Shown: piece after piece, positions 11,708-51,743 of the stretch | How positions within the stretch are numbered: the first letter of the stretch is position 1 | Layout of the letters: every line of letters begins with the position of its first letter | Source of the DNA: a virus | Lineage: Duplodnaviria > Caudoviricetes | IMG/VR virus record: IMGVR_UViG_3300035390_000014 | Coordinates: 96,001-160,000 of that record | Direction: 5' to 3' (one strand) | DNA: 64,000 bases | Translations under genes and position numbers: made by a program | Notes under the pieces: model-generated | Databases searched by the model: none | The model's input: only the letters and a program-made list of their open reading frames with translations | What the model was told of the DNA's origin: nothing

Positions 11708-12097
11708 ATGAAATTTGAATTGAATTTTTTGCCAGACGTTCCAACTGTGAATGGACGAATTTATGAAATGAAAGATCTAGAAGAAATATTTTCTAAACCT
11801 GATATTCCAGTAACATCATTTCCATCTAAAGGTATAGAAGTTAATATGTCAGAAATAATTGGTTATGCAAATCTAACTGAATTATCAGAAGATAAAGTTG
11901 AGTTTGAGGTTAGACCTGTTAAACTAGATATGTTAAATGCTATTACAAGTGGAAAATTAACTATTAATGCTTTTGGAGATGTTAAAAGAATTGATGTAAA
12001 AGATGAATGTGGGTTAATAACTGAGACTAAAAAAGTCGTTAAAGATCTTACATTATATCATTTATTTGCAGCTCATGAAACTAAGATAGAAGAATAA
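11708..12097 (+). CDS. hypothetical protein
   Basis: ORF track; stop abuts tRNA. Confidence 0.55.
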   Translation: MKFELNFLPDVPTVNGRIYEMKDLEEIFSKPDIPVTSFPSKGIEVNMSEIIGYANLTELSEDKVEFEVRPVKLDMLNAITSGKLTINAFGDVKRIDVKDECGLITETKKVVKDLTLYHLFAAHETKIEE

Positions 12098-12385: not shown

Positions 12386-12895
12386 ATGACTGATTTTGGA
12401 AAAGAGTTTATTGATAGCATTAAAAATCATTTTGATTTAGATAAAAGATATAAAGCATCTACTAATAGACAGAGCATTAGAAGTGGTGGTAAAAGTATTG
12501 TTGTAGATGGTGATAATGTTATCATCAATGGGAAACGAATTGGAATTGAAGATGAACATTTTGTTCCTAAGAGAGAACCTAAATTTAAAACAAGAGAAGA
12601 ATATGATGCTCATGTTAGTGAAGTAAAGCTTGCAGCACAAGAAAAAGTTCTTGAAAATACATTAAAATTAAAAGCTCTTCAAAGTATAACTGTAGAACAA
12701 TTGAATAAAAAACTTGAAGGGTATGAAATTAATGAATATATAGCTTCTATATTTCAGCAAAAAGTAGCGAACTTTATAGAACGAAGAGCCTATATGATTG
12801 TTGATGAAGCTTTAGAGGATCTTGAAGATGATGGTCGTGTTACAAGAGCAATAAGAGATAGTGTTATTATTAAAATTAAAAACGCTTTCAAATAA
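12386..12895 (+). CDS. hypothetical protein
   Basis: 169 aa ORF. Confidence 0.6.
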   Translation: MTDFGKEFIDSIKNHFDLDKRYKASTNRQSIRSGGKSIVVDGDNVIINGKRIGIEDEHFVPKREPKFKTREEYDAHVSEVKLAAQEKVLENTLKLKALQSITVEQLNKKLEGYEINEYIASIFQQKVANFIERRAYMIVDEALEDLEDDGRVTRAIRDSVIIKIKNAFK

Positions 12896-13074
12896 AAGGA
12901 GTTATCTATGTGGTTAATCGGAGTAGCAACAACATATATCGGTATAGGGGTATTACTTGCTTGGATACTTTCTACAGCGGGTGGTGAGAAATTTGTTTTA
13001 AATAAAGCAGCATTGCCATTTATTGTAACATGGCCAAAATTAGTTTGGGGAATGATTTTTAAATAATTTAATAT

Positions 13075-13464
13075 GGGGATGAAATGGTATCGCTATAGGT
13101 AGGAATTTTATACTGCGCTTCGTGAATGATTGAGTCACGTTAAAATTGATCATGTAAATACAACTGCAGACAATTTCGCAGATGATTACGCACTAGCAAT
13201 AGCAGCGTAATTCGTTCTAGTTAGTTTATATCTTCGGATTAATATAGGGCGTCGACTTAGAAGATTAGAATTATATTGGTTGGACATAAGATAATTCCAT
13301 GTGACTTTATAATTTGAAACTACTACAGAAATTTATCCTTCAACAATGTTGTTTTGTCAATTCCACATATAGTGATTTGTTGAAGTATTAAAAATTGACT
13401 ATAAGCGTAGATGTATTCTTGGAATATACTATATACTCGAGTTCGACTCTCGACATCTCCACCA
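13075..13464 (+). ncRNA. ssrA: tmRNA
   Basis: GGGGATG/CATCTCC acceptor with G3:U70, A73-CCA, T arm CGAG-TTCGACT-CTCG; tag frame 13166-13210 (A)ADNFADDYALAIAA-stop. Confidence 0.93.
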
Positions 13465-13481
13465 ACTTCAATTTGGTTGAT

Positions 13482-13517
13482 CTCCACTTTTATTTAGAAC
13501 ATATAATAAAAGTGGAG
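13482..13517 (+). promoter_or_regulatory. RBS-sequestering hairpin containing motif A
   Basis: 12-bp perfect IR CTCCACTTTTAT/ATAAAAGTGGAG, loop TTAGAACATATA. Confidence 0.75.
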
Positions 13518-13523
13518 GTATAT

Positions 13524-14264
13524 ATGAATCAAATATGTAAACATTGTGATAAATTTATAGAAGGAAAACATTCTGTTTATGCTAATCATGTTAGATGGTG
13601 TAAAAAAAATCCTAATAATAAAAAAGAAAATATTAAATTTGGTATTTTAAAAGGGTTAGATAAAAGATTAGGTAAAATAAAAGAATTTAAAGTTAAATGT
13701 AATAATTGTAATAAAATTTTTATTGTTAATGAAAGAGAAAAACAATTTCCTAAAAAAGATAAATATTTTTGTAATAGAAGTTGTGCTAACACCAGAAAAC
13801 ATTCAAAGGAAACTAAAGATAAAATAAGAAAATCATGTTCGCCTAAAATTAAAGAATATTGGAATAATCCAGAATATGTTAAAAAACAAATGTCAAAAAA
13901 TTCTATACTTTTTTCTAAAGGCGAGGTAGTAATTAGAACATATTTTAAATGGAATTTTCCTAATCAAAAATGGACTTTTGGTGGTTGTTTAAAACATAAT
14001 GATAGTAGACTAGTTAGAGATCTTTATTCTAAAAAATTAAAAGTTTGTATTGAATATGATGGTATATGGCATTTTGAAGATATACATGGTCAATTAAAAG
14101 ATAAACAAAAAATTGATAAAGCTCTTGAAGATTGGTGTATACAAAATGATTATAGATTGATTAGGATAAAAGAGGATGTTTTTTTAAAAGATGAAGATTT
14201 TTGGATCGATAAATTAGTTAAAGAAGTTAAATATGGTGTTGCTAAAATAATTAAATTTTATTGA
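13524..14264 (+). CDS. putative homing endonuclease, Zn-ribbon plus PD-(D/E)xK (Vsr/DUF559-like)
   Basis: Cys/His motifs; RDLYSKKLKVCIEYDGIWHF; start reassigned to ATG 13524. Confidence 0.75.
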   Translation: MNQICKHCDKFIEGKHSVYANHVRWCKKNPNNKKENIKFGILKGLDKRLGKIKEFKVKCNNCNKIFIVNEREKQFPKKDKYFCNRSCANTRKHSKETKDKIRKSCSPKIKEYWNNPEYVKKQMSKNSILFSKGEVVIRTYFKWNFPNQKWTFGGCLKHNDSRLVRDLYSKKLKVCIEYDGIWHFEDIHGQLKDKQKIDKALEDWCIQNDYRLIRIKEDVFLKDEDFWIDKLVKEVKYGVAKIIKFY

Positions 14265-14277
14265 AAGGTTTAGATTA

Positions 14278-14511
14278 ATGGCTGAGAAAATTAATACATA
14301 CTATAGAGCTCTATACCATGCTGAGGGGATGAACGGACCAGTATTAACAAAAAGGCAATTAATGAATGAGATAGAAACATCTCTTTTAAATATAAGTAGC
14401 ACTGAGCCTGAAATTTCATTTAGTGTTAGTAAGATGCAATTAACTGAAAAACAATTCAAGGAAAGATCAGACGACTTAAAAAATTATACTTATGCAGGTG
14501 TAGAGAATTAA
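14278..14511 (+). CDS. hypothetical protein
   Basis: ORF track. Confidence 0.5.
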   Translation: MAEKINTYYRALYHAEGMNGPVLTKRQLMNEIETSLLNISSTEPEISFSVSKMQLTEKQFKERSDDLKNYTYAGVEN

Positions 14512-14616: not shown

Positions 14617-15177
14617 GTGAATATTATGAAAGACATGAATAAGCTAATACAGTTAAGAGAAGCTACACATAAAGATATGATCAAAGGTTTCCAAGAAAGA
14701 GCAAAAGACCTTAGAATGTCTTTTGAAAGACCAAAAAGAGAAAATGGTATGTTATGTGATTTTGGGTGTGGTCAACCAGCTACTTATATGATTCATGGTA
14801 TAAGTTGTTGTAATAAATATGAAAGTCGCTGTCCTGCATATGAAAGATACCAATCAGAAAAAAGACTAGAAATGGTTGGACAAATCCCTCATAGAAAAAT
14901 GAAGGACACGAAATTTAGTTGTTTTTTGAATTACTTTTTCCATGAGGAATGGTATATACATCAGATTATAAACCTCGTAAAATGGGGGTCTAATCGCGTT
15001 ATAAGACAACAGGGGTTTAGGGTATTACCTATAAATCAAGAATTAAAACCAATCAAAACTTGGGACAGAATAACCAGTCCTCACTTCATAATTAATGAAT
15101 CAATGTACATAAGTCAACCAAAAGGTCAATCAATTATAGCAGTACATATTGGAGAATTACCATATGAAACCAATTAG
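14617..15177 (+). CDS. hypothetical protein with CDFGCG..CC..CP zinc module
   Basis: Module shared with endonucleases at 19804, 28026 and 55840. Confidence 0.55.
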   Translation: MNIMKDMNKLIQLREATHKDMIKGFQERAKDLRMSFERPKRENGMLCDFGCGQPATYMIHGISCCNKYESRCPAYERYQSEKRLEMVGQIPHRKMKDTKFSCFLNYFFHEEWYIHQIINLVKWGSNRVIRQQGFRVLPINQELKPIKTWDRITSPHFIINESMYISQPKGQSIIAVHIGELPYETN

Positions 15178-15520
15178 ATGTGTAGTTTGTAGAACTGAAT
15201 TTGATCACGCTGAACTTGATGGGGCACGTGGTTGCCCGGTATGTGGTTATCAAGGACTTACTATGCTAACTAATGGAGATGTAGCTGTAAATATTAATTG
15301 GTTTGAACTTAGGTTGATATGTATGTGGGCTGAATCTTTAGCTTTACAAGTCGGTGATTCCCATAGTCTCAATGCTTTTTATTCAGTAGTTAATGAATTA
15401 AAGAAACAAATACCAGATTCTGGTAAAATAACAATGTTTGATAAAGCACCTGATCTCACTTGTGATTCAGATTATAATATAGATGATTTAGTAGTTCCGG
15501 ATGGGACGATATTCAATTGA
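15149..15520 (+). CDS. zinc-ribbon hypothetical protein
   Basis: CVVC...CPVCG. Confidence 0.5.
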   Translation: MENYHMKPIRCVVCRTEFDHAELDGARGCPVCGYQGLTMLTNGDVAVNINWFELRLICMWAESLALQVGDSHSLNAFYSVVNELKKQIPDSGKITMFDKAPDLTCDSDYNIDDLVVPDGTIFN

Positions 15521-16905
15521 AGACTAATAATGTTTTAGTGATAGGTGATATAATCCTTGATAAATATATCAAAGGTTCAGTATCCCGCATTTCACCAGAA
15601 GCTCCTGTTCCTATTATTAAAATAGATGATGAACATTACTCATTGGGTGGAGCTGCTAACGTAGCTAATAATTTATCCTCGTTAGGATGCAGTGTTAGTA
15701 TCATTGGTATCATTGGTCTTGATTCCGACGGAAATAAATTAAAACAATTATTTAAAGAAACTAATATTCATTGCTATTTTAATTATAATAAGAATTATAA
15801 AACAACATCTAAGACCAGAATAATTGGTAATAATCAACAGGTAGCAAGACTTGATTATAATGATAATAGTAAACCAGAAGAAATTAGTATTTTTACAATA
15901 GAGCAAACAATTAAAGATGTAATAGATCCATATGATATTGTTGTTATATCTGATTATGATAAAGGAGTTTGTACGAATAGAATATGTCGAACAATAATTC
16001 ATTTATGTAATCAAAAAAATATTCCAGTTATCGTTGATCCAAAGGGAACTGATTGGGATAAATATAGAAAAGCATATATGATAACTCCTAATCTAAAAGA
16101 AACATCTGAGTTAATTGGTAATGAAATTAAAAATACTAATATACAGATTAATGCTAAATGTAGAAATTTAAATGATCAAGTTAGATCTCAATACTTATTA
16201 ATAACAAGATCAGATAAAGGAATGTCTTTAGTTGATGAAGCTGGTATTATTCATATACCATCTAAATCTAAAGAAGTCTTTGATGTTACTGGTGCTGGTG
16301 ATACTGTTATAGCAACTATTGCAGCATTTATTAATAGAATGAAAATAATTGATGTTATTAATTTAGCTAATAAAGCGGCTGGAATAGCAGTATCAAAAAC
16401 AGGAACATCAACAGTAACACAAGATGAATTGAATAATGATCCTATTAGTAATAAGATAATGACTGTAGATTCTTTAATGAAACATGTTAAATTATGGAAA
16501 CAAAAAGAAGAGTCTATCGTATTTACTAATGGTTGTTACGATCTATTTCATAAAGGTCATGCTCATTCAATACATAAAGCATCTGAACTTGGTAATCGCT
16601 TAATAGTTGCTATTAATTCAGATGAATCAGTTCATAGAATTAAAGGTGATAATAGACCATTAAACAATGAATATGATAGAGCATTTGTTATAGCATCTAT
16701 TAATAATGTTGATGCAGTAATTATATTTAATGAGGTTACACCAGATAACATATTACAATTAATCAGACCCAGTGTATTAGTTAAGGGTGGGGATTATATG
16801 CTTCATGAGATTGTAGGAAGAGAATATGCGGATAGAGTTGAAGTTATTAATTATTTACATGGTTATTCAACTACTAAGATGGTTAAAAAAATAGAAGGTA
16901 AATAA
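15517..16905 (+). CDS. hldE: bifunctional heptose 7-phosphate kinase / heptose 1-phosphate adenylyltransferase
   Basis: VIGDIILD, SRISPEAPVP, DVTGAGDT (PfkB); FTNGCYDLFHKGH (cytidylyltransferase-like). Confidence 0.92.
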   Translation: MKTNNVLVIGDIILDKYIKGSVSRISPEAPVPIIKIDDEHYSLGGAANVANNLSSLGCSVSIIGIIGLDSDGNKLKQLFKETNIHCYFNYNKNYKTTSKTRIIGNNQQVARLDYNDNSKPEEISIFTIEQTIKDVIDPYDIVVISDYDKGVCTNRICRTIIHLCNQKNIPVIVDPKGTDWDKYRKAYMITPNLKETSELIGNEIKNTNIQINAKCRNLNDQVRSQYLLITRSDKGMSLVDEAGIIHIPSKSKEVFDVTGAGDTVIATIAAFINRMKIIDVINLANKAAGIAVSKTGTSTVTQDELNNDPISNKIMTVDSLMKHVKLWKQKEESIVFTNGCYDLFHKGHAHSIHKASELGNRLIVAINSDESVHRIKGDNRPLNNEYDRAFVIASINNVDAVIIFNEVTPDNILQLIRPSVLVKGGDYMLHEIVGREYADRVEVINYLHGYSTTKMVKKIEGK

Positions 16906-17267
16906 TGGAAAAAATAAAAAAAACATGGGGATGGGAACATTGGTTTGAAAATAATGAAAAATATTGTGGCAAACTGATATTTATAGATTTTAATAAATGG
17001 TCTTCTAAAGGAAAATTTCATTATCATAAATTAAAAGATGAAACTTTCTTTGTTTTGAAAGGTTGTTTAACTCTACAATATTATGAAGATGATATTAAGC
17101 ATTGTTTGAAAATACAGGAAGGTGAATCTTTTCGTATAATGCCAGAGGTTAAACATAGATTTAAAACAAATACAATCAAAGGTTGTGAATTTATTGAAGT
17201 ATCTACACAACACTTTGATGAAGATTCATATAGAACTAAACTTGTAAATGGTGAATGGACAGGATGA
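16905..17267 (+). CDS. cupin, sugar isomerase-like
   Basis: KTWGWE..YCGKL..HYHKLKDETF..HRF. Confidence 0.7.
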   Translation: MEKIKKTWGWEHWFENNEKYCGKLIFIDFNKWSSKGKFHYHKLKDETFFVLKGCLTLQYYEDDIKHCLKIQEGESFRIMPEVKHRFKTNTIKGCEFIEVSTQHFDEDSYRTKLVNGEWTG

Positions 17268-17905
17268 AAAAGATATTAGCAATTGGTGGAGCTGTTATAA
17301 AAACTGCCAAGGGAGAGTTAAGAGAATACATTGAGAATGATCAAATAGAGATGCTTATTCATAACGGAGGGTCTATATTTCACGATTTTCAACAAGCTAT
17401 TGATCCTAATCTCACTTCTCATTCATACCCTTTAAATGATCTAATAAACGATTATTCATGTAATAAAGAAGCTAGTACTTATGTTTGGGAATTTGTAAAT
17501 TATAACACAGCACCAGAAGAGTCAATTACTAAGTTGTGTGTTGATAAAGGTATTCCAGTATTATTATTCACTGGACTTGGTTGTGATTTTTGGCATTTAT
17601 TTGCAACTCCGGATTTATGGTCAGATTATGGCAGACAATCGTATTATTATTTTGAAGAATTATGGAAACGGTTTAAAGATCCTTTTCATTATATTTGTAT
17701 GGGATCAGCAGTTATTCATCCAGAAGTGTTTACTAAAGCAATAGCAGTTGCAAAGAATAAAAATTTTAAATCAGATGTTGTTGATTTTAAATATATGTAT
17801 AGACCTCAGACAAGAATTTCAATTTATGGAACATATTATCATATGACCCATAAAAGATTTTTAGGAGATCAAAATGCCTTATATAAAACCAGAAAGAAAA
17901 AGTGA
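17264..17905 (+). CDS. deoxyhypusine synthase-like fold protein
   Basis: GGAVIK and MGSAVIHPEVFTKA resemble a DHS-like family recalled from heptose gene clusters. Confidence 0.5.
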   Translation: MKKILAIGGAVIKTAKGELREYIENDQIEMLIHNGGSIFHDFQQAIDPNLTSHSYPLNDLINDYSCNKEASTYVWEFVNYNTAPEESITKLCVDKGIPVLLFTGLGCDFWHLFATPDLWSDYGRQSYYYFEELWKRFKDPFHYICMGSAVIHPEVFTKAIAVAKNKNFKSDVVDFKYMYRPQTRISIYGTYYHMTHKRFLGDQNALYKTRKKK

Positions 17906-18116
17906 ACTCGTTAATGAACAAGCAAATTATTCAGGTGAATTGAATTATAAAATTACTGAGTTAGCTATTGAATACTTAGATCATAAAGGCAAATCATACG
18001 ATACCATTAATGAGATTATGGGAGCAATGGAATGTGCTAAGTTAGAATTTTATCGTAGAGTAGCAGTTCCATATGAGGAAACAAAGAAAGAAGAAAATGG
18101 TGACGTCTATGGCTAA
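17874..18116 (+). CDS. conserved phage protein (MPYIK..GELNY family)
   Basis: Recognisable N-terminal motif. Confidence 0.55.
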   Translation: MPYIKPERKSELVNEQANYSGELNYKITELAIEYLDHKGKSYDTINEIMGAMECAKLEFYRRVAVPYEETKKEENGDVYG

Positions 18117-18337: not shown

Positions 18338-18691
18338 ATGAAACCACGTAAACTATTATTCTCAGTTGGTAAAAAAGACTTTATAATCCAGACATTTAAA
18401 GCTGGAGGTAAAGGTGGCCAACATCAAAATAAAACAGATTCAGCAGTTCGTATAATTCATCCGGAGTCAGGAGCAGTTGGAGTTAGTCGAAATGATAGAA
18501 GTCAATTTAAAAATAAAAAAATAGCATTTGAAAGATTAACAAAAACAATAAAATTTAAATTATGGATTACTAAACGAGTTAATGAAATTGATGTTGGTAA
18601 AACAATTGAACAACAAGTCGAAGAAGATATGAAACCTCATAATTTAAAAGTTGAAGTTAAAGATGAGAATGGAAAATGGTCAATTGAATAA
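18338..18691 (+). CDS. class I release-factor GGQ domain protein (ArfB/PrfH-like)
   Basis: GGKGGQHQNKTDSAVRIIH...RSQFKNK. Confidence 0.85.
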   Translation: MKPRKLLFSVGKKDFIIQTFKAGGKGGQHQNKTDSAVRIIHPESGAVGVSRNDRSQFKNKKIAFERLTKTIKFKLWITKRVNEIDVGKTIEQQVEEDMKPHNLKVEVKDENGKWSIE

Positions 18692-19803: not shown

Positions 19804-20568
19804 ATGATTTGTGAATATTGTAAAGAAGAGCATGATGGTGAATATGGATCTGGTAGATTTTGTAACTCTAAATGTGCGAGAGGATTTTCTACTAAAGCTA
19901 AAAGAAAAGATATAAATAAAAATCTTTCTGAAAAAATGAAAGGGTATAAAACTATACCTGGTGGAATGATTAAACTTTGTGATTATGGTTGTGGAAAAGA
20001 AGCGAAATTTGAAATGACTAATGGAAATTGGTGTTGTGAAAACCATTATTCTAAATGTCCATCTATTATTAAAAAGAATTCAATAGCTTTAAAATCTGCT
20101 TATAAAAGTGGTAGAAAATCAAAATTTATTATGCCACAAGAAGCTTTAGATAGATCTTTAGAAACAAGAAAAAATAATCTATGTGAATATTATAATTCTA
20201 TACCATTTGAAAAGAAACCTGATGCTGAAAGACGAAGAATTATTTTAAATGAACAAGATGAAAAATGTTTGATTTGTGGCATTAAGGATTGGAATAATAA
20301 ATCTTTAGTATTACATCTTGATCATATTGATGGTAATAATCAAAATAATAAAAGAGAAAATTTAAGAATTATTTGTCCGAATTGTCATAGTCAAACAGAT
20401 ACATATTGTAGAGGAAAACCAAAAAATATATCAGATAAAAAATTATCTAAATTACTTATAAAAAATAATTTTAATTTTTGTAAAACATTAAATGAAGTAG
20501 ATTTAGTTCCTGGTGGTTATAACTGGGAACGAATTACAAAATTAGCGAATAAGATTATGCCCGCGTAG
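19804..20568 (+). CDS. HNH homing endonuclease
   Basis: LHLDHIDGNNQNN..ENLRIICPNCH; stop lies inside tRNA-Leu. Confidence 0.85.
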   Translation: MICEYCKEEHDGEYGSGRFCNSKCARGFSTKAKRKDINKNLSEKMKGYKTIPGGMIKLCDYGCGKEAKFEMTNGNWCCENHYSKCPSIIKKNSIALKSAYKSGRKSKFIMPQEALDRSLETRKNNLCEYYNSIPFEKKPDAERRRIILNEQDEKCLICGIKDWNNKSLVLHLDHIDGNNQNNKRENLRIICPNCHSQTDTYCRGKPKNISDKKLSKLLIKNNFNFCKTLNEVDLVPGGYNWERITKLANKIMPA

Positions 20569-21396: not shown

Positions 21397-21490
21397 GAAC
21401 GAACGAAAAAGGCACGGGATCACGTGGTCCCACGCAAAGTCACAGGTCTTTTATAAAGGATAAAAGATGGCTGGTCTACCGAAAACGTTC
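21397..21490 (+). promoter_or_regulatory. c-di-GMP-I (GEMM) riboswitch, copy 2
   Basis: Same core; P1 GAACG/CGTTC; P2 and P3 loops differ from copy 1. Confidence 0.8.
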
Positions 21491-28025: not shown

Positions 28026-28697
28026 ATGTTATGTGATTATGGTTGTGGGCAAGAAGCTAGATATACAATAGGTAATGGTAAATTATGTTGTTCTAAACAT
28101 TATAATTCATGCCCGGAACTTAGAAGAAAGAATAGTAATTCTGTTAAAAAAAGTAGAGAAAAAGAAAAAGAGTTGGGAATAAAAAGATATTCTCCACAAT
28201 ATTTAAAAGTTAAATGTCAATATTGTGATAGAATAACTACACAAAACATGATAAAAAGACATGAAAAATTTTGTTATTTAAATCCATTAAATATAAAATT
28301 ATGCCCTGTTTGTAATAAACCAGTTAAAGATTATAAAAATGCAACTACATGTTCTCAACAATGTGGTCAAAGATATTTCAGAAGTATGTTTGATAAGGTT
28401 AGACGTGAAAGAAATATGAGTTGGATTGATGATTTATATGATGGTGGTTCACATTATAAGACTATTTGTTTTAGATATCATGAGAAAAAATGTATTATAT
28501 GTGGTGAAGATATAGCAGTATCTGTTCATCATTATGATGGAAATCATGATAATAATAAACCAGAAAATTTAGTTCCTTTATGTATGAATCATCATGTTTA
28601 TATACATAGTACAGTTGAAAATATGTATATTATAAAAGAATGTGTTGATGAATATGTTAAGGAATATTGTAAGAAAAACAATTTAATGCACCTGTAA
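28026..28697 (+). CDS. HNH homing endonuclease
   Basis: CDYGCG module; VHHYDGNHDNN.PENLVPLCMNHH; stop lies inside tRNA-Thr. Confidence 0.85.
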   Translation: MLCDYGCGQEARYTIGNGKLCCSKHYNSCPELRRKNSNSVKKSREKEKELGIKRYSPQYLKVKCQYCDRITTQNMIKRHEKFCYLNPLNIKLCPVCNKPVKDYKNATTCSQQCGQRYFRSMFDKVRRERNMSWIDDLYDGGSHYKTICFRYHEKKCIICGEDIAVSVHHYDGNHDNNKPENLVPLCMNHHVYIHSTVENMYIIKECVDEYVKEYCKKNNLMHL

Positions 28698-29853: not shown

Positions 29854-30027
29854 ATGAAAACCATAGAATGTCCTTTATGTAAAGAGATTATTAAGAAAAA
29901 TAATCTTAAAGGTCATTGTTGGTATGCTCATGCACTTAGTATATCGAAAGATCCTAATAAAAAAAATAAACCATGGGATCAAGTAGGTATTGATAAAATT
30001 AAAAAAGTAATTGGTGGGTTCCCATAA
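29854..30027 (+). CDS. small C2H2 zinc finger protein
   Basis: Manual translation MKTIECPLC...GHCWYAH; stop lies inside tRNA-Ser(GCU). Confidence 0.5.
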   Translation: MKTIECPLCKEIIKKNNLKGHCWYAHALSISKDPNKKNKPWDQVGIDKIKKVIGGFP

Positions 30028-36551: not shown

Positions 36552-37106
36552 ATGTCAGAATTGCTAAAGTTAATGAAAGACGATTTGCATAAAGCAATGA
36601 AACGTGAAGTAGAATTTCGTAAAGATGGAATTAAATCCGGACTCATATATGAAACTTGTATGGCTGTTAAAGATGTCGTTAGAGCTATAATATCTATGTA
36701 TCCAGAAATAAAAATTAAACCTGATAATGCAACAGATGATGATACAATTAAACTTCTTAAAAAATTTATAACTTTAGAAAAAGTTAGAGAATTATATCTA
36801 CAACATCATTTATCTGGAAGTATGGTTACTGGACTATCAGCAAGTAAGTTAAATGTTTTACAAAAAAGTACAATAACTGATCTTGGTGATAAACTTACTT
36901 CACCAAAAATTAAAATAGCTCAAACTTATCTTCCTGATACAGCTACTTTTACTGCTGATGATATTCATGAGTGGATTAAAAGAAATATTAATTGGGATAA
37001 CTACAAAAATAAAATGCAAGCTATGGGTCCAATTATGAAACATTTTGTTGGAGCTGATGGTAATATAGTTAGAAGAATCATTGAAGGGTATACTAAATAT
37101 GAGTGA
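36552..37106 (+). CDS. GatB/YqeY domain protein
   Basis: LMKDDLHKAMK start, YLP, AMGPIMK. Confidence 0.6.
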   Translation: MSELLKLMKDDLHKAMKREVEFRKDGIKSGLIYETCMAVKDVVRAIISMYPEIKIKPDNATDDDTIKLLKKFITLEKVRELYLQHHLSGSMVTGLSASKLNVLQKSTITDLGDKLTSPKIKIAQTYLPDTATFTADDIHEWIKRNINWDNYKNKMQAMGPIMKHFVGADGNIVRRIIEGYTKYE

Positions 37107-50152: not shown

Positions 50153-50650
50153 ATGTATGAATGTTATAAATGTGGAAGAGAATTTAGTAAAGCTGAGGGG
50201 TTATCCAAACATGTAAAATCATGTGTTGGTAAAAGGTATTGTAAACAGTGTGGCATAGAAACAAAAAATCCAAAATTTTGCTCATCTAGTTGCGCTGAAA
50301 CTTATAACAATACTCAGTATTTATTAGAAACAAAAAAAGAAGAGGCAGTATCTTATGAACTATCTGCTAAACCTTATTTTGAATTATCAATACATGACAG
50401 AAAAGAAATTTTATGGCTTGAACAAAAGCACAAATGTTTGACTTGTGAATTTGATTTGTATGATCCTATAAATGTACCATATGAAATATATCATGTAGAT
50501 GGTAATGATACTAATAAACAAAGATCTAATGAACAATTGTTATGTTGCAATTGTTATAATATGAAACCAAATTATAGATTCAAAGGTATAAAGCATACTA
50601 AAGAATCTAAAAAAATAAAGAAAAAGATGTTAACAATTATGCCCCTATAG
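50153..50650 (+). CDS. zinc finger / HNH-like endonuclease, possibly degenerate
   Basis: IYHVDGNDTN..NEQLLCCNC; stop lies inside tRNA-Arg. Confidence 0.65.
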   Translation: MYECYKCGREFSKAEGLSKHVKSCVGKRYCKQCGIETKNPKFCSSSCAETYNNTQYLLETKKEEAVSYELSAKPYFELSIHDRKEILWLEQKHKCLTCEFDLYDPINVPYEIYHVDGNDTNKQRSNEQLLCCNCYNMKPNYRFKGIKHTKESKKIKKKMLTIMPL

Positions 50651-51075: not shown

Positions 51076-51405
51076 ATGACTTTCAAAGAATTAAAAAACA
51101 GTATCAAAAAACAATTAAAAGAAACAGCTAACACTATTCGTATTTTAAAAGCAGCAAGAAAACCTCATGTCTATAATAGCAACCCTGCATTATATGATAA
51201 GTTAGGTGATCTAGATTCACTCAGGTATAGTATAAGACATAAACACATTGCTTATTGCATGTTTTTCAATGGAACTGAATATGGTGATATTGAAAGAAAA
51301 TGTAATGAGAGTCCATACATTGGTAGAATTGATCAGTATAAAAAAGAATGGTCTTATATTGTGGAGGCGAATCAAGATGCAAAAACTGTACGTGATAGTG
51401 CGTAA
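51076..51405 (+). CDS. hypothetical protein
   Basis: AGGAG RBS; RHKHIAYC. Confidence 0.6.
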   Translation: MTFKELKNSIKKQLKETANTIRILKAARKPHVYNSNPALYDKLGDLDSLRYSIRHKHIAYCMFFNGTEYGDIERKCNESPYIGRIDQYKKEWSYIVEANQDAKTVRDSA

Positions 51406-51667
51406 GGATCTAAGTCCTTCACAAATAGCTGTTCAAGCAGGTCACGCAGTAGCAGAATATTTAGTTAATGATTCAAAGACTTGGAAAAATGAGATCCTAA
51501 TTTATTTGGGAGTTCCTGGTCTTAGACAGTTACATAGATGGATGATGAAACTTGATAATCAAGATGTTAAATATACTGCATGGCGAGAACCTGATATTAA
51601 TAATGAAGTGACAGCAATAGCAAGCACTGGTTCAAGTGAATTTTTTAAAACATTGAACCTATTATAA
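51377..51667 (+). CDS. peptidyl-tRNA hydrolase 2-like protein
   Basis: KLYVIVRKDL..QIAVQAGHA; WREPD..TAIA. Confidence 0.75.
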   Translation: MQKLYVIVRKDLSPSQIAVQAGHAVAEYLVNDSKTWKNEILIYLGVPGLRQLHRWMMKLDNQDVKYTAWREPDINNEVTAIASTGSSEFFKTLNLL

Positions 51668-51743
51668 GCCGGTGTAGCTTATTGGGAGAGCCGAGAACTC
51701 TAAATTCTTGATTGAGTAAGTTCGATCCTTACCATCGGCACCA
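51668..51743 (+). tRNA. amber suppressor tRNA (CUA)
   Basis: GCCGGTG/CATCGGC, GAGAA-CTCTAAA-TTCTT, canonical D and T arms, A73-CCA. Confidence 0.88.

Follow-up and report, generated by a model that had tools for sequence, protein, structure and literature searches.

A complete one-piece transfer-messenger RNA (tmRNA, SsrA) gene is encoded at positions 13075-13464 of a 64,000-nt stretch of phage DNA (hereafter, the window), which corresponds to bases 96001-160000 of the 202,719-bp IMG/VR virus record IMGVR_UViG_3300035390_000014 of an uncultured sediment phage. The record is estimated by CheckV to be ~65% complete. The window is AT-rich (G+C content of 27-35%) and harbours all 26 tRNA genes of the record as well as its single tmRNA. 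The sequence features described below suggest, with a probability of roughly 0.8, that the RNA is a working phage-encoded tmRNA. The preliminary description of this DNA had reported the gene and had proposed, in addition, that it belongs to a phage ribosome-rescue kit together with three protein genes; the observation is confirmed, while the interpretation is partly supported.

ARAGORN, the check named in the preliminary description, reports a complete tmRNA with the tag ADNFADDYALAIAA* on the plus strand, with the same ends as given there. Rfam agrees, since the gene exhibits a full-length match to RF00023 (model positions 1-374) with a score of 94.3 bits against a gathering score of 47 (E 1.9e-35). 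The parts of the gene are as follows.

13075-13464, plus strand: one-piece tmRNA gene of 390 nt with encoded CCA (ARAGORN; Rfam RF00023)
13075-13101, plus strand: 5' half of the tRNA-like domain, comprising the acceptor strand GGGGAUG and the D-loop analogue (ARAGORN domain map)
13121-13153, plus strand: pseudoknot PK1, RNA stems 47-51/61-65 and 52-59/72-79 (93-100% paired in the alignment of relatives)
13166-13210, plus strand: tag frame with the resume codon GCA, 14 codons for ADNFADDYALAIAA and a UAA stop (ARAGORN)
13184-13212, plus strand: helix 5, containing the last part of the tag frame with its stop codon (96.4% paired; helix 6 of the alignment)
13220-13265, plus strand: pseudoknot PK2, stems 146-152/163-169 and 156-161/186-191 (100% paired, helices 7 and 8 of the alignment, with three pairs changed on both sides)
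13426-13464, plus strand: 3' half of the tRNA-like domain, comprising the T arm, the acceptor strand CAUCUCC, A73 and CCA (direct reading, ARAGORN)

The alanine-type acceptor noticed earlier can be read directly in the sequence and on the ARAGORN map: the 7-bp acceptor stem GGGGAUG/CAUCUCC contains the G3:U70 pair and is followed by the discriminator A73 and an encoded CCA, and the sequence of the T loop is UUCGACU. PK1 is an H-type pseudoknot located just 5' of the resume codon (13166-13168), and helix 5 holds the UAA stop (13208-13210) in its 3' strand. A scan for promoters and terminators around the gene revealed nothing above chance.

Relatives of the gene were sought among 80 metagenome loci encoding kin of the neighbouring GGQ protein (18338-18691, see below). 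ARAGORN detected full tmRNAs in two of these loci (L081:7725-8098 and L087:1017-1408), and a profile search with nhmmer added two partial ones, in L084 and L082, which are cut by contig ends. The comparison set thus consists of three full and two partial sequences, with a mean column identity of 77% over all five and 86% over the three full ones. Nine helices were scored, namely the acceptor stem, H2a, H2d, the two stems of PK1, H5, the two stems of PK2 and the T stem. Altogether, 99.1% of 217 cells are paired, and 13 of the 58 pairs have changed on both sides; none of 500 shuffles matched these values, and structures slid by 1-3 columns give at most two compensatory pairs. In the three full copies the 5' acceptor strand reads GGGGAUG, GGGAGAG or GAGGGCG, yet all three retain a matching 3' strand as well as the G3:U pair, so that positions 2, 4, 5 and 6 covary and account for four compensatory pairs. 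The T stem, UCGAG/CUCGA here and CAGGG/CCCUG in relatives, contributes three more. PK1 and the resume region are nearly invariant among the relatives; hence, covariation support for PK1 itself is weak. Outside this set, no match to the tmRNA was obtained by blastn against 50,697 phage records, and exact-pattern scans of IMG/VR with the 3' end, the tag and the PK1 block returned one tRNA-Ala and unrelated matches, with no tmRNA relative among them.

The encoded tag is conserved as well. Four tags are readable, ADNFADDYALAIAA in the window and ADNYADDYDLAIAA, ADNFADDYSLAIAA and ADNFADDYDLAIAA in the relatives, giving the consensus ADN[F/Y]ADDY[A/S/D]LAIAA, in which 12 of the 14 residues are kept. 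The frame is uninterrupted in each of the four sequences spanning it, and its one synonymous change (GCA to GCC) falls in an unpaired loop. The earlier claim that the phage has its own tag with a ClpXP-type end is borne out to the extent that the 14-codon frame ends in LAIAA, with an Ala-Ala C-terminus and a YALA-like core, in the relatives too. Because 13 pairs have changed on both sides and the tag is conserved, both the fold of the RNA and its message are under purifying selection.

The suggestion that the tag may identify the host lineage fared less well. The tag ADNFADDYALAIAA was not recognised in the ARAGORN tag list, and no identical counterpart was found. A metagenome scan for the pattern DDYALAIAA* gave no match, which is explained by the fact that the relatives differ at the ninth tag residue; the relaxed pattern DDYxLAIAA*, searched in 185,579 species-representative genomes, likewise hit no tmRNA, the one match being a chance occurrence in a Bacillaceae metagenome-assembled genome that is not a tmRNA. 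No lead to a host emerged from these searches. As to codon usage, the tag frame departs from the bias of the phage: GAC, UUC, UAC, CUA and GCG each account for 4-13% of the usage within their codon family in the phage open reading frames (ORFs). Four of them (GAC, UUC, UAC and CUA) are exact Watson-Crick matches to anticodons of phage tRNAs, while GCG is read by a phage tRNA-Ala (UGC) and the tag codon AUA is covered by a phage tRNA-Ile(UAU).

The four relatives (L081, L082, L084 and L087) share the order of genes around the tmRNA. Upstream of it stand homologues of 11708-12097 and 12386-12895 and then a small hydrophobic ORF, whereas the downstream block is made up of homologues of 14278-14511, 14617-15177, 15149-15520 and 17874-18116, followed by the GGQ gene. 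The immediate neighbours in the window are these.

12908-13066, plus strand: 52-aa hydrophobic ORF, the conserved upstream neighbour, ending 8 nt 5' of the tmRNA (the L087 ORF in the same place is 68% identical)
13524-14264, plus strand: HNH endonuclease gene, inserted directly 3' of the tmRNA and outside the rescue function (PHROG 559, E 6e-13)

The HNH gene is missing from the tmRNA-adjacent site in all four relatives, where the homologue of 14278-14511 comes next. Its ribosome-binding site lies within a long hairpin at 13465-13535 (-20.8 kcal/mol, z -4.8). A second added segment, at 15517-17905, separates the tmRNA from the GGQ gene and encodes HldE (PfkB kinase and cytidylyltransferase), a cupin-like protein and a DHS-like protein; this block is found in L083, is absent from L081, L082, L084 and L087, and looks like a mobile cassette. 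After the two insertions, the GGQ gene of the window lies 4.9 kb from the tmRNA. Further downstream, a match to the c-di-GMP-I riboswitch was recorded at 21401-21483 (39.1 bits, cut-off 35).

The preliminary description had seen no SmpB gene in the window, and a six-frame search for SmpB (PF01668) over the whole 202,719-bp record (~65% complete) also remained empty. The same search in 20 related IMG/VR phage records, six of which are at least 90% complete, found none either, and two of the SmpB-negative records (G028 and G040), both at least 91% complete, contain a tmRNA. Among the small conserved genes that separate the tmRNA from the GGQ gene, none has a match in Pfam, NCBIfam or PHROG, and none appears SmpB-like by eye. 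ClpP, a bacterial-type Pth and a second RF-1 domain gene were not found in the record. Since no SmpB is encoded in the phage record, such phages likely rely on that of the host and, likewise, on its alanyl-tRNA synthetase, EF-Tu and proteases.

From sequence, fold signature, covariation, tag conservation, synteny and the lack of SmpB we infer the following course of events. The tmRNA would be transcribed within the 45-kb tRNA island of the phage and excised by host RNase P in the manner of a tRNA, as the end of the upstream ORF 8 nt before the 5' end and the encoded 3' CCA may indicate. Host alanyl-tRNA synthetase would then charge it with alanine via G3:U70 and A73, host SmpB would bind it, and EF-Tu would bring it to ribosomes stalled at the 3' ends of broken mRNAs. 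Translation would resume at GCA, add (A)ADNFADDYALAIAA and terminate at the UAA in helix 5, and the Ala-Ala end should pass the product to ClpXP-type proteases of the host. The likely benefit to the phage would be that ribosomes are kept free during infection, when many mRNAs may be truncated by host nucleases, by phage-driven host shut-off or by the phage's own tRNA processing.

Several points weigh against a working tmRNA of this kind. The Rfam score is modest, the region of PK3 and PK4 is poorly conserved and lacks a confident alignment, and the D-loop analogue reads GGUAUCGC, the usual form being GGAUUCGAC, a difference that may bear on the binding of SmpB. Covariation was derived from only three full and two partial sequences. 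The tag ends in AIAA and not in the common ALAA, and its recognition by a protease is assumed. In addition, phage genes rarely use 5 of the 14 codons of the tag, so part of the tag conservation could reflect RNA structure and not coding. Finally, the record being ~65% complete, its SmpB-free status applies to the recovered part.

The three protein genes which the preliminary description had grouped with the tmRNA do share one tRNA island with it.

18338-18691, plus strand: 117-aa stand-alone GGQ protein, consisting of release-factor domain 3 and a small folded acidic C-terminal part (PF00472; PHROG 3122)
36552-37106, plus strand: 184-aa diverged YqeY/GatB-C-terminal-like protein (homologues; PHROG 1460)
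51377-51667, plus strand: 96-aa protein with the Pth2 fold, its gene followed directly by a tRNA with a CUA anticodon (PF01981; structure model)

The GGQ protein contains an RF-1 domain (PF00472, 68.6 bits) and no codon-recognition domains. It had been called ArfB-like, and with ArfB (YaeJ) and mitochondrial ICT1 it does share a stand-alone GGQ domain without codon-reading domains. The hallmarks of ArfB are a flexible linker and a C-terminal tail, basic and unstructured, which inserts into the mRNA channel (PMC8012679), whereas the 45 C-terminal residues of the phage protein are predicted to form two helices and a hairpin (predicted local distance difference test score, pLDDT, of 82-94), and the last 30 residues carry a net charge of -3, the median over 32 family members being -2.5. 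The NCBIfam models of PrfH, RF2 and RF1 score 69.6, 64.4 and 60.2 bits, respectively, all below their full-length cut-offs, while the ArfB model (NF006718) scores 30.7 bits against a cut-off of 100; similarly, the family profile gives 74 bits to RF1 and 27 bits to ArfB among PDB sequences, i.e. 27-31 bits to ArfB as compared with 60-74 bits to RF1, RF2 and PrfH. In a Foldseek search with the AlphaFold model (pLDDT 88.4), RF2, mtRF1, RF1 and PrfH lead and ICT1 appears at rank 49; the protein lacks superdomain 2/4, aligning only over domain 3 and the next helix (chain residues ~190-310). As the basic tail is missing and the release-factor models score far above that of ArfB, the protein is a stand-alone release-factor domain 3 and not ArfB. 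As a catalytic domain of this kind, it could provide a second way to hydrolyse peptidyl-tRNA, without a tag. One 138-aa member of the family (P0042) is exceptional in having an extra Lys/Arg-rich C-terminal tail with a net charge of +9 over the last 30 residues, which is an ArfB-type feature.

The GGQ protein is a full-length match, with no difference found, to PHROG 3122, annotated as 'RF-1 domain peptide chain release factor' (E 1.2e-33, residues 4-115 on profile positions 21-128 of 136), a family for which we know of no tested function. At least 288 metagenomic members of ~115-125 aa were found at 58-81% identity. The family is annotated in 205 mycobacteriophage records (~49% identity over residues 4-114) and occurs in Listeria, Staphylococcus, Salmonella and Acinetobacter phages as well.

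For the product of 51377-51667, the preliminary assignment as Pth2-like is supported by the predicted structure. The sequence score is at the Pfam threshold (PF01981, 23.1 bits, cut-off 23), and the NCBIfam Pth2 equivalog gives 13.7 bits against 126, while PF01981 is matched by 26 of 48 homologues (E <= 0.01) from a family of 935 representative clusters. The model (pLDDT 96.7) retrieves Pth2-family chains or Atu0240 as its top 13 Foldseek matches, with template modelling (TM) scores of 0.73-0.78 and E values of 1e-6 to 6e-5, and the call of a Pth2 fold, resting on this model, is sound. Archaeal and eukaryotic Pth2 proteins (PF01981; PDB 2ZV3, 1XTY, 1Q7S) have the same fold, although the phage protein is only 14-22% identical to them and ~20 residues shorter. 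Where MJ0051 has its Gly-Lys-Gly-Lys loop, presumed to be catalytic, the profile alignment shows Ser/Lys/Ser/Gln-type residues, with Gln in place of the second Lys, and Glu-Pro-Asp stands at the place of the Asp-Ala-Gly of MJ0051. The tRNA with the CUA (amber-reading) anticodon (51668-51743) begins one base after the stop codon of this gene.

The earlier naming of a YqeY protein at 36552 holds by way of homologues, most of which, at 45-60% identity, carry PF09424 or the name YqeY, and by way of PHROG 1460, matched over the full length (E 6.6e-6); the three nearest Atlas clusters are also YqeY (best score 0.89). It does not hold by direct match, because the protein itself gives no Pfam (PF09424 included) or NCBIfam hit even at E <= 10. 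By these homologues and profiles, it is a diverged member of a phage YqeY/GatB-tail family.

Whether the four genes form a coordinated kit that counters host nucleases acting on mRNA or tRNA is a matter of their distribution, and the distribution makes such a kit improbable. Apart from the shared ~45-kb island, the case for it comes from the tmRNA and the GGQ gene, as the former lies 1.3-1.9 kb upstream of the latter in the four closest relatives and 1.7 kb upstream in a more distant record (G022), and both are present in Bxz1-type mycobacteriophages. Nevertheless, 27 loci with GGQ proteins at 52-68% identity have no tmRNA in flanks of up to 10 kb, and among the 45 IMG/VR records with the GGQ gene only 5 contain a full tmRNA, as do 2 of the 7 with a completeness of at least 90%. 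Large records with both genes usually show a long distance between the two; in mycobacteriophage ScottMcG they are separated by 19 kb and reside among replication genes. The tmRNAs of other GGQ-bearing phages are unrelated in sequence and in tag (e.g. GNYSLAYAA, VETSTPLRMAA). The Pth2-like family is found in a different set of cultured or named phages (Lak, Stenotrophomonas, Xanthomonas and Aeromonas jumbo phages), no cultured phage gave a match to the YqeY-like protein, and to our knowledge YqeY has no rescue activity. The four genes are thus distributed differently among phages and are not co-inherited, contrary to the proposed kit. The most fitting view is that they belong to the translation-support genes which large phages inherit separately, and that within this clade the tmRNA and the GGQ gene are linked locally; a role in rescue is putative for the Pth2-fold and YqeY-like proteins, which are accessories to translation in general.

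Two tmRNA-like genes met in this survey differ from the one in the window. That of G022 (L053:1501-1937; 88 bits, 51% G+C) is unrelated to it, was missed by ARAGORN and encodes, as read from the alignment, a tag of ~31 codons ending in VLA. Record G027 (L055) has an 83-nt mini tmRNA-like gene scoring 48.7 bits.

A narrower connection between the tmRNA and the GGQ gene might be drawn from the layout of the island. Four of its ORFs (19804-20568, 28026-28697, 29854-30027 and 50153-50650), three of them of 165-254 aa, have their stop codons 10-15 nt inside the 5' part of a downstream tRNA gene, so that excision of the tRNA would leave at least four messages of the phage without a stop codon; non-stop mRNAs are the substrate that tmRNA-SmpB prefers (PMC8012679). 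Another 12 ORFs stop 0-9 nt before an RNA gene, and there excision would leave mRNAs nearly devoid of a 3' untranslated region. The processing of phage tRNAs as the phage's own source of tmRNA substrates is suggestive only. It may be extended to a two-route rescue unit serving the tRNA island, in which RNase P would strip the stops from at least four ORFs and tagging would act as a built-in brake on their proteins while ribosomes are recycled, the neighbouring GGQ protein supplying the second route. We regard such a unit as unlikely.

The tag invites a different thought, namely that the phage tmRNA competes with that of the host and that its putatively different tag would alter the fate of the products, for instance by slower or adaptor-independent degradation or through a phage factor. 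The tag, which has two acidic blocks and an AIAA end, is clade-specific and conserved, it is not recognised in the ARAGORN tag list, no tmRNA in the species-representative genomes has a tag with this ending, and the tags of related phages mentioned above are very different. On the other hand, the usual Ala-Ala end and the YALA-like core are compatible with recognition by ordinary proteases, and the record contains neither ClpP nor any other protease obviously dedicated to the tag. Re-routing of this sort therefore seems quite doubtful. It is very unlikely, too, that the RNA is a sponge or inhibitor which titrates host SmpB or blocks host trans-translation with no tagging of its own. The lack of a phage SmpB would agree with such a role, as would the mini version in L055 and the existence of phage tmRNAs reduced to the tRNA-like domain (TLD), for which this role has been proposed, a similar molecule being an inhibitor of tmRNA (PMC4131195); but the message part is the best conserved of all, with PK1 and the resume region nearly invariant and a frame that is open in four of four sequences and has changed synonymously, features that a sponge would not need. 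Lastly, integration often takes place at bacterial ssrA, and the phages then carry its 3' end, yet practically no weight can be given to a host tmRNA mis-assembled into phage DNA or to an attP-type (phage attachment site) ssrA fragment, since the gene is of full length and not a 3' fragment, has a G+C content of 34% near the 29-31% of the phage, and is flanked by phage genes whose order is shared by four independent contigs, a synteny that rules out both chimera and fragment.

A tmRNA gene in a large phage is not without precedent. The published list of phage tmRNAs includes eight Bxz1-like mycobacteriophages, Bacillus phage G and the TLD-only form of DS6A (PMC4131195). The Bxz1-like cluster C mycobacteriophages (ScottMcG, Catera, Rizal) and phage G likewise carry a complete one-piece tmRNA in a large, lytic, tRNA-rich genome, although their RNAs have no detectable sequence relationship to that of the window and the tag differs. 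ScottMcG gp204, encoded between the DNA polymerase and the recombinase, belongs to the same small RF-1 domain family as the GGQ protein (~49% identical over residues 4-114), and the tmRNA of this phage (73.5 bits) is 19 kb away from it, as compared with 1.3-5 kb between the two genes in the clade of the window. The combination of a tmRNA with a small RF-1 domain protein is therefore already present in published cultured phages. Huge phages known from metagenomes are reported to encode tmRNA, SmpB and RF1/RF2 (PMC7162821); they resemble the present phage in being larger than 200 kb and uncultured and in having a tmRNA, many tRNAs, release-factor-like genes and a CCA-adding enzyme, whereas the phage SmpB reported there has no counterpart in this record or in the 20 related ones. 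With the bacterial one-piece SsrA (RF00023) the tmRNA of the window shares the G3:U70 domain, PK1, the GCA resume codon, the Ala-Ala tag end, the stop codon in helix 5 and PK2, and it differs in its G+C content of 34%, its D-loop analogue, a weakly conserved region of PK3 and PK4, a 14-residue tag with no identical counterpart and its location in a phage record without an SmpB gene.

Phage tmRNAs have been catalogued for two decades, and in the literature we found none that was shown to tag proteins. This small clade provides a clean case for a test of tagging, as the RNA is complete and the tag, being distinctive and conserved, should be easy to spot by mass spectrometry; moreover, no phage SmpB having been found, the RNA probably must work with a foreign host partner. 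An annotation shortcut is corrected at the same time, in that the small GGQ proteins of phages are release-factor domain-3 proteins without the ArfB tail. The layout with stop codons inside tRNA genes, for its part, would be a concrete way, open to testing, in which the phage itself gives rise to non-stop mRNAs.

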